Both the position numbers and the translations under genes were made by a program. From NCBI RefSeq assembly GCF_055900595.2, contig NZ_CM148325.1: DNA of 64,000 nucleotides; one strand, given 5' to 3'. Below, one piece after another: positions 2,480 through 27,816 of the stretch. The notes below the pieces were generated by a model that was not told where the DNA came from, did not search any database, and saw nothing but the letters and a program-made list of their open reading frames with translations. Within the stretch, counting starts at the first letter, position 1; each line of letters begins with the position of its first letter.

Positions 2480-3817
2480 ATGTCTTCGGATGCTGATGCT
2501 CACAAAGTGGGCTTAATCCCCGTCACCCTGATGGTGTCGGGGAATATTATGGGGTCAGGTGTTTTTCTGTTACCTGCAAACCTGGCCTCCACTGGCGGGA
2601 TTGCCATTTATGGATGGTTGGTGACGATTATCGGTGCGCTGGGGCTCTCGATGGTATACGCCAAAATGTCGTTCCTCGACCCAAGTCCTGGTGGTTCTTA
2701 CGCTTACGCCCGCCGCTGCTTTGGCCCGTTTCTCGGTTATCAAACCAACGTCCTCTACTGGCTGGCCTGCTGGATCGGCAATATCGCCATGGTGGTCATT
2801 GGCGTAGGATATTTAAGTTACTTCTTCCCGATTCTGAAAGATCCACTGGTATTAACCATCACCTGCGTCGTGGTGCTGTGGATCTTCGTCCTGCTGAACA
2901 TTGTCGGTCCGAAAATGATCACCCGCGTGCAGGCCGTTGCCACCGTGCTGGCGCTGATCCCCATCGTCGGGATTGCCGTATTTGGCTGGTTCTGGTTCCG
3001 TGGTGAAACCTATATGGCGGCATGGAACGTCAGCGGCCTGGGCACCTTCGGCGCGATTCAAAGTACCCTTAACGTTACGCTGTGGTCGTTCATCGGTGTG
3101 GAAAGTGCCTCCGTTGCCGCAGGTGTGGTGAAAAACCCGAAACGCAACGTCCCTATCGCCACCATTGGTGGGGTATTGATTGCCGCCGTTTGCTATGTAC
3201 TTTCTACCACCGCGATTATGGGGATGATCCCTAATGCCGCACTGCGCGTTTCTGCTTCGCCATTCGGTGATGCCGCACGGATGGCGCTGGGTGACACCGC
3301 CGGGGCCATTGTTTCTTTCTGCGCAGCTGCGGGTTGCTTAGGTTCACTGGGCGGCTGGACGTTGCTGGCGGGTCAAACGGCGAAAGCCGCTGCCGATGAC
3401 GGGCTGTTCCCACCGATTTTTGCCCGTGTAAACAAAGCGGGTACGCCAGTGGCAGGGCTGATTATCGTCGGTATTTTGATGACCATCTTCCAGCTCAGTA
3501 GCATTTCGCCAAACGCGACTAAAGAGTTCGGTCTGGTTTCTTCCGTGTCGGTCATCTTTACACTGGTGCCATATCTTTACACCTGTGCGGCGTTACTGCT
3601 GCTCGGCCACGGTCACTTTGGTAAAGCACGCCCGGCATATCTGGCAGTTACTACCATTGCCTTCCTCTACTGCATCTGGGCCGTGGTGGGGTCCGGGGCG
3701 AAAGAGGTTATGTGGTCATTTGTCACCCTGATGGTCATCACCGCCATGTATGCGCTGAATTACAACCGGCTGCATAAAAACCCGTATCCCTTAGATGCAC
3801 CAATAAGCAAAGATTAA
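2480..3817 (+). CDS. adiC: Arginine:agmatine antiporter (APC superfamily)
   Basis: 445 aa polytopic membrane protein, N-terminus [36 protein letters not shown] typical of APC transporters; synteny with adiA/adiY. Confidence 0.9.
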
Positions 3818-23090: not shown

Positions 23091-23647
23091 TGATGGGAAA
23101 ACTGGTTTGGTTGATGGGGCCGTCCGGCTCCGGGAAAGATAGCCTGCTGGCGGAGCTCCGCCTGCGGGAACAAGCTCAGTTACTGGTGGCGCATCGCTAC
23201 ATCACGCGCGATGCCAGCGCCGGAAGCGAAAATCATATCGCCCTGAGTGAGCAGGAGTTTTTTGCCCGCGCGGGGCAGCAACTCTTCGCATTAAGCTGGC
23301 ATGCTAATAGCTACTATTACGGTGCCGGGCTGGAAATTGACCTCTGGCTGCACGCCGGATTCGACGTGGTGGTCAACGGTTCACGCGCCCATCTGCCGCA
23401 GGCGCGGGCGCGCTATCAATCGGCGCTGCTGCCCATCTGTTTACAGGTTTCGCCAGAGATCCTGCGCCAGCGCCTGGAAAACCGTGGACGGGAAAACGCG
23501 ACAGAAATTAACGCCCGACTCGCACGCGCCGCCCGCTATACTCCTCAGGATTGCCATACGCTCAACAATGACGGCAGCCTGCGCCAGTCGGTCGACACGC
23601 TGCTGACGCTGATCCATCAGAAGGAGAAACACCATGCCTGCTTGTGA
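23090..23647 (+). CDS. phnN: Ribose 1,5-bisphosphate phosphokinase PhnN
   Basis: 185 aa; P-loop [11 protein letters not shown]. Confidence 0.85.
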
Positions 23648-24068
23648 GCTTCGCCCGGCCACGCAGTACGATACCGACGCGGTTTACGCGCTGATTTGCG
23701 AGCTAAAACAGGCGGAGTTTGACCACCACGCGTTTCGCGTGGGGTTTAACGCCAATCTGCGCGACCCGAACATGCGCTACCATCTGGCGCTGCTGGATGG
23801 CGAAGTTGTCGGCATGATCGGCCTGCATTTGCAGTTTCATCTGCATCATGTCAACTGGATCGGCGAAATTCAGGAACTGGTGGTGATGCCGCAGGCACGT
23901 GGTTTGAACGTGGGTAGCAAATTGCTGGCATGGGCGGAAAAAGAAGCTCGCCAGGCCGGGGCCGAAATGACCGAGCTTTCCACCAACGTCAAGCGCCACG
24001 ACGCGCACCGTTTCTATCTGCGCGAAGGCTACGAGCAGAGCCACTTCCGCTTCACCAAGGCGCTGTAA
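23634..24068 (+). CDS. phnO: Aminoalkylphosphonate N-acetyltransferase PhnO (GNAT)
   Basis: 144 aa GNAT-like protein overlapping the phnN 3' end. Confidence 0.85.
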
Positions 24069-24828: not shown

Positions 24829-24862
24829 TGGGTGAGGGGCGATGCCTGCTCTAAACTCAACA

Positions 24863-25192
24863 TCACCGCCCATACTCATCTTCCATTCTCCGCTCTTCAT
24901 CTTCTAGCTGCCGACGCTCCTGATCCAGCTGGCGCTGGCGATCGTCCAGCTGCCTGCGGCGATCTTCAAACTGGCGGCGGCGATCGTCATATTGTCTGCG
25001 CCGATCGTCGTTCACTTCACGCTGCCAGCCGTCGTCGCGCGAATCTTCATAGTCTCGCCCACGGTCAGGGTTATAAGCATCGTTAATCGCCTGCTGAATA
25101 TTACCAATGGTGTCGTCGATAATATCGGCCTGGGCCGGAACGGTGGACAGCGTGAGCAGGGTGAATAAAAGAAATAGCGGAAAACGTTTCAT
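24863..25192 (-). CDS. yjdP: Small secreted protein YjdP (signal peptide, charged Arg/Asp/Glu/Gln-rich repeats)
   Basis: 109 aa; N-terminal MKRFPLFLLFTLLTLSTVPAQA signal peptide, then low-complexity RRRQ/DDR repeats. Confidence 0.75.
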   Translation of the reverse strand: MKRFPLFLLFTLLTLSTVPAQADIIDDTIGNIQQAINDAYNPDRGRDYEDSRDDGWQREVNDDRRRQYDDRRRQFEDRRRQLDDRQRQLDQERRQLEDEERRMEDEYGR

Positions 25193-25260
25193 TAGCCAAC
25201 CTCAAAAAGAAACTCTATCCACATTAGTCATTACTCATCCATGCAAGTAGTGGATGAATC

Positions 25261-25578
25261 TCAATTTTTCCGCTGCTCTATTGCCGTAATCGCCTCCACA
25301 CGTTGTTGATGACGACCGCCTTCGTACTGCGCGCCCAGCCACGCATCCACAATCATTTTTGCCAGTTCGAGGCCAACCACTCGTGAACCAAAAGCCAGTG
25401 CAACTTCACTGGCGTAATGCGGATAATCAGTGCGCTCTGACGACCTGGTTTCTTTATCAATCCCCTCACTCATTGACCATGAATAAAAGGCTGGCACAGC
25501 AACGCAGAATCCTGCGGTGCCAGCGACATGACCGCCCATTGCTCCGGTACGTTTTTTAATAAGAAACACCGGTTGCAT
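25261..25578 (-). pseudogene. rpiB: Remnant of ribose-5-phosphate isomerase B gene (internally deleted, 5' part scrambled)
   Basis: C-terminal ~60 aa of the ORF (SSERTDYPHYASEVALAFGSRVVGLELAKMIVDAWLGAQYEGGRHQQRVEAITAIEQRKN) matches RpiB as I recall it, but the central ~50 residues, including the GTGVG...AANK active-site region, are missing and the N-terminus does not match. Confidence 0.55.
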
Positions 25579-25830
25579 TGATTAATTGTGCTCAGTATTT
25601 GCCGAAGTACAATATATATAATAAATATATAAAACACCTCATATTATTTACAGAGATAATAAATTCGCATACTTTTCCCTCTTCAGCACAAATGCCTAAT
25701 AAAATGGCTCGTTCCGCTCACACTTCCACTTATTAAAATCGCAATTTCCCAATTATGATAACGCCAGCTTTAAATGACGTATTTTGCATGGATTACATAT
25801 TTACGACACAAATGATAAATGGAGATTTAT

Positions 25831-27816
25831 ATGAATAACTCTCGGTTATTCCGTTTGAGCAGGATTGTTATTGCGTTAACTGCCGCCAGCGGCATGATGG
25901 TAAATACCGCTCACGCAACAGATGAAGCGAAAGCCGCCACTCAATATACCCAACAGGTTAATCAGAATTACGCCAAATCATTACCGTTTAGCGATCGTCA
26001 GGATTTTGACGATGCCCAGCGCGGATTTATCGCCCCGCTGCTGGATGAAGGTATTCTGCGCGATGCGAATGGCAAAGTTTACTACCGCGCGGATGATTAC
26101 AAATTTGATATTAATGCCGCTGCGCCGGAAACCGTAAACCCCAGCCTGTGGCGTCAGTCGCAGATCAACGGCATTTCTGGCCTGTTCAAAGTCACCGATA
26201 AAATGTATCAGGTGCGCGGCCAGGATATCTCTAACATTACATTCGTTGAGGGCGAGAAAGGCATTATTGTTATCGACCCACTGGTGACACCGCCTGCCGC
26301 AAAAGCCGCACTTGACCTTTACTTCCAGCATCGTCCGCAAAAACCGATTGTTGCTGTTATTTACACCCACAGCCACGCCGACCATTATGGCGGTGTGAAA
26401 GGCATTATCTCTGAAGCGGATGTTAAATCTGGCAAAGTGCAGGTGATCGCTCCGGCAGGCTTTATGGACGAAGCCATCAGCGAAAACGTGCTGGCGGGTA
26501 ACATCATGAGCCGCCGTGCGCTCTACTCTTACGGTCTGTTACTGCCGCACAACGCGCAAGGCAACGTGGGCAACGGCCTGGGCGTGACGCTGGCAACGGG
26601 CGATCCGAGCATTATTGCGCCAACCAAAACGATTGTCAGAACTGGCGAGAAGATGGTTATCGACGGTCTGGAGTTTGACTTTCTGATGACTCCGGGTAGC
26701 GAAGCGCCAGCCGAAATGCACTTCTATATTCCGGCCCTGAAAGCCCTGTGTACCGCCGAAAACGCCACGCATACCCTGCACAACTTCTACACCCTGCGCG
26801 GCGCGAAAACCCGCGATACCAGCAAGTGGACAGCGTATCTGAACGAAACGCTGGATATGTGGGGTAACGACGCGGAAGTACTGTTTATGCCGCACACCTG
26901 GCCGGTCTGGGGCAATAAGCATATCAATGATTATATTGGTAAATATCGCGATACTATCAAATACATTCACGACCAGCCCCTGCACCTGGCGAACCAGGGT
27001 TACACCATGAATGAAATCGGCGACATGATTAAGCTGCCACCTGCGCTTGCCAATAACTGGGCCAGCCGCGGCTATTACGGTTCTGTTAGCCACAACGCCC
27101 GTGCAGTGTATAACTTCTATCTCGGCTATTATGACGGCAATCCAGCTAACCTACATCCGTACGGTCAGGTGGAGATGGGCAAACGTTACGTGAAAGCGCT
27201 GGGCGGTTCCGCCCGTGTCATCAACCTGGCGCAAGAAGCGAACAAGCAAGGGGATTACCGCTGGTCAGCAGAGTTGCTGAAACAATTGATTGCCGCCAAT
27301 CCGGGTGACCAGGTGGCGAAGAATCTGCAAGCAAATAACTTTGAACAGTTGGGTTATCAGGCCGAGTCCGCCACCTGGCGCGGTTTCTACCTGACCGGCG
27401 CAAAAGAGCTGCGCGAAGGGGTGCATAAGTTCAGCCACGGCACCACCGGTTCTCCGGACACCCTTCGCGGGATGTCGGTCGAAATGCTGTTCGACTTTAT
27501 GGCCGTTCGCCTCGATAGCGCGAAAGCCGCAGGTAAGAATATCAGCCTGAACTTCAATATGAGCAACGGCGATAACCTCAACCTGACGCTGAACGATAGC
27601 GTGCTTAACTACCGTAAAACGCTGCAACCTGAAGCCAACGCCTCTTTCTACATCAGCCGTGAAGATCTTCACGCCGTGCTGACCGGACAAGCCAAAATAG
27701 CGGATCTGGTAAAAGTGAAGAAAGCCAAAATTATTGGCAATGGCGCGAAACTGGAAGAAATTATTGCCTGTCTGGATAATTTCGATTTGTGGGTGAATAT
27801 CGTAACCCCAAATTAA
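25831..27816 (+). CDS. yjcS: Putative alkyl/aryl sulfatase YjcS (metallo-beta-lactamase fold, secreted)
   Basis: 661 aa from MNNSRLFRL; signal peptide; HSHADH motif. Confidence 0.8.

Follow-up and report, generated by a model that had tools for sequence, protein, structure and literature searches.

The yjdP–yjcS interval

The window analyzed here, a stretch of 64,000 nucleotides from contig NZ_CM148325.1 (NCBI RefSeq assembly GCF_055900595.2), is syntenic, in inverted orientation, to the 4.27-4.33 Mb region of the Escherichia coli K-12 chromosome. The genes are arranged in the order adi, bas, proP, the phn operon and yjdP, followed by yjcS, ytcA, mdtNOP, fdhF, nrf and acs. In K-12, the site between yjdP and yjcS is occupied by rpiB, alsR (rpiR), alsB, alsA, alsC, alsE and alsK, that is, by the D-allose regulon, which PMC2808357, citing Kim et al. 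1997 and Poulsen et al. 1999, describes as alsR/rpiR, alsBACEK and rpiB/alsI. The corresponding gap in the window contains one ORF alone, with 105 codons on the minus strand (Table 1). The 252 bp from the start of this ORF (25578) to the yjcS ATG (25831) have a GC content of 31%, compared to 52.7% window-wide, in good agreement with the approximately 240 bp of AT-rich DNA described in an earlier reading that was made without database searches (hereinafter, the sequence-only reading).

A tblastn search of the entire 64-kb window with the K-12 Als proteins as queries returns only the generic similarity shared by ABC ATPases, in phn and uvrA genes, so that alsR, alsB, alsA, alsC, alsE and alsK are all missing beside rpiB. 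The matches to als-rpiB DNA or proteins that the window does contain are two fragments of rpiB and, from alsK, the stop codon and hairpin alone. The absence of rpiR (alsR) and alsBACEK noted in the sequence-only reading is thus corroborated, and the alignment to K-12 (reference locus L001, NC_000913.3 4303000-4316000) bears out its interpretation of the interval as a deletion scar, resolving two deletions with defined breakpoints.

Table 1. Features of the yjdP–yjcS interval (window coordinates; L001 is the K-12 reference locus)
Feature	Position	Strand	Remarks
yjdP (DDRRRQL-repeat protein), intact left flank	24863..25192	-	109-aa ORF; 97% identity to K-12 yjdP within a 569-nt alignment; annotated as yjdP in all relatives read
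Chimeric ORF, RefSeq 'RpiB/LacA/LacB family sugar-phosphate isomerase'; interpreted as a pseudogene remnant	25261..25578	-	105 aa, 318 nt
rpiB 3' fragment = K-12 rpiB nt 313-450 (residues 105-149 and stop)	25261..25398	-	135/138 identical, E=5e-63
Junction of the 159-bp in-frame internal deletion, one CTGGCT	25393..25398	-	K-12 has two copies, rpiB nt 154-159 and 313-318
rpiB internal fragment = K-12 rpiB nt 84-153 (residues 29-51)	25399..25468	-	62/70 identity to K-12 and to ATCC 11775; more diverged than the 3' fragment
8-nt filler (ctcattga, + strand), junction of the 6,557-bp deletion	25469..25476		window 25468 = L001 10434; 25477 = L001 3876; neither side matched
alsK 3' remnant: final CCA codon, TGA stop (25480-25482), then stem-loop (about 25490-25524)	25477..25527	+	41/52 identity to L001 3825-3876, E=3e-07
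Segment of ~77 nt private to the scar haplotype, holds the ORF ATG (25576-25578)	25528..25604		in 8/8 scar alleles; no K-12 counterpart
Native yjcS upstream region, including the AT-rich motif (about 25611-25636)	25605..25830	+	window 25607-26000 = L001 3823-3429, 94%
yjcS (alkyl sulfatase), intact right flank	25831..27816	+	PGAP start in RMDEC465 maps to window 25831

The closest relative of the window is E200086 (human stool, Mali), which carries IS1 insertions in phnM and actP; none are present in the window. The phnO gene is intact in the window (23634-24068) and is annotated as frameshifted in O157:H7 ECP17-46 (L011 6913-7348). Among 5,426 complete E. coli genomes, the best match to window positions 13001-38000 is only 98.6% identical over 25 kb, which suggests that the source lineage is sparsely sampled among complete genomes.

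Junctions and origin of the reading frame

Pairwise alignment shows that, compared to K-12, 6,557 bp are missing from the window (L001 3877-10433, i.e., NC_000913.3 4,306,876-4,313,432), a region that spans alsK, alsE, alsC, alsA, alsB, alsR, the alsR-rpiB spacer, the rpiB promoter and rpiB nucleotides 1-83 (28 codons). The junction of this deletion is located inside the 105-aa ORF, between rpiB nucleotide 84 and the last alsK codons with the TGA (25477-25482). The sequence-only reading had placed the missing ~7 kb in the spacer between the ORF and yjcS and had proposed the AT-rich sequence atatatataataaatatataaaac as the breakpoint. Both proposals have to be revised given that the junction falls within the ORF, at 25469-25476, and that the K-12 yjcS-alsK spacer contains the same motif (L001 3789-3823; the K-12 version is TTTATGTGTTTATTATATATATTGTAC, at L001 3797-3823), with homology to K-12 continuous from yjcS through the motif to window position 25605-25607. 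An illegitimate 6,557-bp deletion probably fused the last alsK codons to rpiB nucleotide 84 with the 8-nt filler in between, and eliminated the transporter, kinase, epimerase and repressor genes along with the rpiB promoter and rpiB codons 1-28.

The stem-loop downstream of the alsK stop codon is predicted to fold both in the scar (-22.8 kcal/mol, z=-3.2) and in K-12 (-21.6 kcal/mol, z=-3.0; L001 3827-3866). The stem-closing pair differs on both sides, C-G in the scar and U-A in K-12, and a T-rich run follows the hairpin on the opposite strand. On the sense strand of the ORF, the alsK hairpin is followed by CCUUUUAUU.

The second deletion is internal to rpiB and comprises 159 nt, or 53 codons, lost in frame (RpiB residues 54-106, including CGTGVGISIAANK); the alignment thus confirms the in-frame loss of the catalytic GTGVG...AANK region proposed previously. 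The two CTGGCT copies of K-12 are found in the contexts GCACTGGCTG (left) and GTGCTGGCTT (right), and the window contains GCACTGGCTTTTGG. The 159 bp were probably lost by slippage or microhomology between the two CTGGCT repeats, with the removal of residues 54-106 and thereby of the catalytic loop. This junction is identical in all eight scar alleles that were aligned. The mechanisms, order and age of both deletions are what we infer from these comparisons. The 159-bp deletion brings an existing inverted repeat, GCCAGTG…CACTGGC, beside TTTTGGTT (25394-25413, minus strand). This hairpin with a T-run inside the ORF (25413-25394) is the sole terminator-like match in the region, compared to 0.6 expected by chance.

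In the alignment to K-12, window positions 24830-25398 match yjdP and rpiB nucleotides 313-450. The other retained piece of rpiB, nucleotides 84-159 (window 25393-25468), is identical to K-12 in 68 of the 76 positions; the alignment of window 25389-25468 to rpiB nucleotides 84-163 shows 88.75% identity over 80 nt (E=2e-23), its last nucleotides overrunning the deletion junction. At the protein level, residues 38-62 of the ORF originate from RpiB residues 29-53, and residues 63-105 from RpiB residues 107-149. Comparison with the solved structures of E. coli RpiB (1nn4, E=7.8e-33; 2vvr, E=1.3e-32) yields matches in two stretches, ORF 38-65 to RpiB 29-56 and ORF 60-105 to RpiB 104-149. The description of rpiB as an internally deleted, N-terminally truncated remnant is thus upheld, with residues 1-28 and 54-106 missing by alignment, but the statement that the ORF matches only the C-terminal part of RpiB is too narrow because a 25-aa internal piece (RpiB 29-53) is retained as well. 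Codons 1-37 run antisense through the 77-nt scar-specific segment, then through the hairpin and stop of alsK and the filler. The sequence-only reading was correct in that these 37 residues lack similarity to RpiB, but they do not represent a foreign protein, being antisense read-through at the former alsK end. A derivation of this N-terminus (MQPV.L) from the start of an O157 response regulator (MKPVVL) was considered and dropped because the DNA alignment puts the two ATGs approximately 25 nt out of register.

The comparison with the RpiB/LacA/LacB isomerases (PF02502) shows what the two deletions leave of the family. The ORF falls below every curated cut-off, scoring 77 bits against the TIGR01120 (rpiB) cut-off of 138.65, with 255.7 bits for K-12 RpiB, and 61.7 bits against the TIGR00689 (RpiB/LacA/LacB subfamily) cut-off of 88.3, with 211.1 bits for K-12 RpiB. 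Hence it is not a full-length functional RpiB, the alternative envisaged in the sequence-only reading. The Pfam model PF02502 is matched significantly over positions 102-138 only (ORF 61-97, E=6e-09). The C-terminal helix region of the family (ELAKMIVDAWL…GGRH…RV) is present; the catalytic loop with the conserved cysteine (CGTGVG), which lies within the deleted residues 54-106, and the N-terminal strand with the conserved Asp-His (GCDHVG), encoded in the absent rpiB nucleotides 1-83, are both missing. The residues conserved in RpiB are, according to PMC4783025, a cysteine, a histidine near the N-terminus and a histidine at about position 100. Their E. coli equivalents map to the deleted parts. 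In E. coli numbering, these include C66 in CGTGVG and the His~99/Asn100 region. In the retained internal piece, the substitutions G34E and W36R affect positions that are invariant or nearly so among the aligned enterobacterial RpiBs. Judging from these losses, we infer that the ORF product makes no active isomerase.

A consensus scan of positions 25100-25900 found no promoter-like site, but the scan is crude, and it detects none for yjcS either, a gene that must have one. Inspection by eye of positions 25579-25595 showed no obvious Shine-Dalgarno sequence at the ORF start. Together with the two hairpin and T-run motifs within the ORF, these results count against the possibility that the ORF is functional, either as a shortened RpiB derivative that has acquired a new role or as a chimeric de novo protein under selection. 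Such a role would be compatible with the frame being open in 10 of 10 alleles read (three protein variants), with the nearly unchanged C-terminal 45 residues, and with the annotation, given that PGAP assigns no pseudogene flag and RefSeq treats the ORF as a real CDS. However, the protein lacks both the catalytic loop and the N-terminal strand, it fails the family cut-offs, and G34E and W36R fall on conserved family residues; the differences among scar alleles within the ORF, about 4-5 nonsynonymous to 3 synonymous, fit neutrality although the counts are too small to decide. Recombination with the flanking yjdP region accounts for the conserved 3' part, and a stop-free extension of 39 codons has a chance of about 15% of arising by accident. 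A functional ORF is therefore highly improbable. Given that both deletions are in frame and that neither the antisense of the alsK terminator nor the 77-nt segment contains a stop, the 105-codon frame stays open and, being open, is annotated by gene callers. We conclude that the ORF, a pseudogene remnant, remains open by chance; it is probably not expressed.

Distribution and ancestry of the allele

Window positions 24863-25900 are covered to at least 80% in 1,569 of the 5,426 complete E. coli genomes, and the 301-nt core (25400-25700) in 1,568, so that the scar has a frequency of about 29%. The intact K-12 als-rpiB block (at least 80% covered) is present in 3,367 of these genomes, and about 439 show no als or rpiB match at all. 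The sequence-only reading had proposed such a pangenome survey of the als locus and had pointed out that the als genes might have been translocated elsewhere in the genome. No translocation is observed in the 13 sampled scar genomes, each of which matches the als query in one place, the 138-nt rpiB 3' piece; across the collection, this query matches only 6 more places than records (4,988 records). The recurrence of this architecture in 1,568 complete genomes, each assembled independently, rules out chance and errors of sequencing or assembly, for example a collapsed region.

Seven other alleles, those of RMDEC465, O104:H4, AH01, A35, GCEC19, S1-JOR-02-A and 00_3305, agree with the window in both junctions, in the filler and in the 77-nt segment, and the annotations of E200086 and E. 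coli W include the same 318-nt ORF in the yjdP-yjcS gap. With both junctions and this ORF, the window belongs to the common als-deletion haplotype found in W and O104:H4. The features that these alleles have in common indicate that all scar alleles read descend from one origin.

Among the approximately 439 genomes without an als or rpiB match, one was examined, O157:H7 ECP17-46 (NZ_CP040572.1), which contains, between yjdP and yjcS, a 9.4-kb sugar island (L011 8583-17733) without rpiB or als fragments, which we take to be the Z5688 region of EDL933. The island encodes a hybrid histidine kinase/response regulator, a sugar ABC transporter, D-lyxose/D-mannose isomerase, ketose-bisphosphate aldolase, a kinase and a response regulator. 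It shares with the window the yjdP-yjcS gap and the proximal yjcS upstream region, and about 33 nt of the 77-nt segment are weakly alike, but the gene set is unrelated, no rpiB or alsK fragments are included, and none of the island genes are present in the window. With about 439 of the 5,426 genomes lacking any als or rpiB match, the yjdP-yjcS site has at least three states and can be regarded as a modest example of a replacement hotspot for sugar utilization.

The existence of such a hotspot, together with the lack of the 77-nt segment in all als+ genomes, could be taken to indicate that the short allele is the ancestral empty site into which the als-rpiB island was inserted later, in K-12-type strains. 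This is extremely unlikely. Two rpiB fragments and the alsK stop and hairpin, all in the right order and orientation, are not expected of an empty site, and Escherichia fergusonii carries als-rpiB at the same position, in the order yjcS-alsK-alsE-alsC-alsA-alsB-alsR-rpiB-yjdP. The E. fergusonii order and the gene fragments inside the scar instead imply that als is ancestral and the short allele is a deletion, and the same arrangement in K-12 and ATCC 11775 is compatible with this being the ancestral gene order.

None of the als+ complete genomes contains the 77-nt segment (with a hybrid alsK and scar query, the best als+ matches cover 86%), and no second copy is found in the scar genomes. When compared by blastn (word size 7) to the K-12 als locus, to ATCC 11775 and to the O157 island, it shows nothing beyond the flanks; the right ~33 nt weakly resemble the edge of the O157 island, with a Smith-Waterman score of 15 that 9 of 500 shuffled sequences also attained. 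Owing to its divergence, the alsK-yjcS spacer of E. fergusonii does not align informatively with the segment. Among 100,044 species representatives, an exact 20-mer of the segment has one chance match, in a Frankiales MAG, and no phage match for the segment was found. A plasmid source was rejected inasmuch as the matches are chromosomes filed as plasmids: the PLSDB entries NZ_CP141089.1, NZ_CP134663.1 and NZ_OL790696.1, which carry the scar, are 4.8-4.9 Mb in size and thus evidently chromosomal.

Compared to its flanks, the core of the scar has diverged much further from als+ alleles, as seen in the 62/70 identity of rpiB nucleotides 84-153 versus 135/138 for the 3' piece. In the alsK hairpin region, the scar is 75-77% identical to als+ alleles, compared to 98% between K-12 and ATCC 11775, and in the distal yjcS upstream region the respective values are 72-77% and 83%, whereas identity is 96-98% over the proximal 166 nt whichever pair is compared. 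Pairwise identity in the hypervariable distal part (25605-25665) is 58-83% among the scar, K-12, ATCC 11775 and O157 types. Within rpiB nucleotides 84-159, there are six fixed differences between two scar and two als+ alleles, of which, with these small numbers, three show the E. fergusonii state in the scar and three are scar-derived; two of the six correspond to G34E and W36R at family-conserved residues. Simple loss of DNA from a K-12-like als locus accounts neither for the divergence of the hairpin nor for the 77-nt segment. These patterns suggest that the scar lineage might have split off before the K-12 and B2-type als alleles coalesced, with subsequent recombination homogenizing the flanks only.

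The same divergence (89% in the rpiB piece, 75-77% in the hairpin and 72-77% in the distal yjcS upstream region, versus 97-98% outside), along with the 77-nt segment found in no als+ E. coli and the E. fergusonii state kept at three sites, would also be accounted for if the scar haplotype had been imported by recombination from another species, or from a deeply divergent lineage of Escherichia, whose als locus had decayed beforehand. We consider an import unlikely. The retained RpiB piece differs from E. coli in 4 of 25 residues, compared to 8 for E. fergusonii and 6 for Citrobacter (manual count), and the 3' piece is E. coli-like, with 135/138 identities to K-12 as opposed to 99/138 to E. fergusonii. 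Moreover, hypervariability of the distal yjcS upstream region is evident already in the comparison of two als+ strains (83%). Of the six fixed differences, three arose in the scar, as is typical of pseudogene drift, and the 20-mer tested is carried by no other species representative. A foreign donor was also sought among the RpiB orthologues of E. fergusonii, Citrobacter, Salmonella and Enterobacter and was rejected, the remnant being closest to E. coli RpiB.

Taken together, the interval is best interpreted as a non-functional deletion scar of the D-allose regulon that represents a common, old allele of the yjdP-yjcS region (probability of roughly 0.93). A more specific version of this history, which we put forward only tentatively and consider less probable than its negation, is an old polymorphism of three alleles, als-rpiB, the scar and the O157-type island, in which the scar derives from an als variant that is no longer intact in the sampled E. 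coli. The private 77-nt segment, the approximately 24% divergence of the alsK hairpin and the outgroup state at three of the six rpiB differences point in this direction. If this is the case, the scar is older than the divergence between the K-12 and B2 als alleles and has spread or persisted across phylogroups via recombination or selection on sugar use.

Allose utilization and annotation

Compared to the K-12 D-allose regulon, the window retains, at the same yjdP-yjcS site, rpiB nucleotides 84-159 and 313-450 and the alsK stop and hairpin, but all seven genes are lost or destroyed, with 6,557 bp and 159 bp fewer than in NC_000913.3. The known pathway (PMC2808357, PMC3032704) predicts that loss of the AlsBAC transporter, AlsK, AlsE and RpiB (AlsI) results in an allose-negative strain, and the source strain is accordingly predicted to be unable to take up or catabolize D-allose. 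E. coli W is reported to be incapable of catabolizing allose owing to the absence of alsBACEK (PMC3032704), and EAEC 042, reportedly without rpiB, rpiR and alsBACEK, is described as allose-defective on Biolog phenotype arrays (PMC2808357). E. coli W (ATCC 9637) carries the scar, with the 318-nt ORF at NC_017635.1 4571973-4572290; the remnant ORF is the same as in the window, whose allele differs by a few substitutions (WP_001183291 versus WP_001183287 in W). The papers on W and 042 describe the absence of the operon but not the breakpoints or the remnant. The scar is a common, previously reported gene-content polymorphism of E. coli. Its biological weight is small, with als absence and lost allose growth already published for W and 042, and the junctions, single origin, signs of age and systematic mis-annotation are useful details, not discoveries.

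The sequence-only reading had also raised the question of whether rpiA, located elsewhere, covers the pentose-phosphate needs. At the population level, this appears to be the case: rpiA is full length in 5,425 of the 5,426 complete E. coli genomes, including, for example, the scar genome wlxctx60, which indicates that RpiA covers these needs in the population surveyed. In the source genome, ribose-5-phosphate isomerization would be left to the core gene rpiA, which lies outside the window and is presumably present.

In every scar genome examined, the remnant is annotated as an ordinary isomerase CDS (WP_001183291, WP_001183287 or WP_001183282), at positions 3399-3716 of locus L002, 562-879 of L005-L010, 25039-25356 of L014 and 2274-2591 of L016 in the relatives. 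Automated metabolic reconstructions could therefore wrongly grant RpiB or allose-6-phosphate isomerase to about 1,570 complete genomes. Given in K-12 coordinates, the breakpoints can serve as a simple marker, by PCR or in silico, for the als-negative allele. In the type strain ATCC 11775, the als locus is otherwise complete, but the annotation lists alsC, which has an internal stop, as a pseudogene (L004 5854-6834), so that the presence of als genes is no guarantee of allose use.
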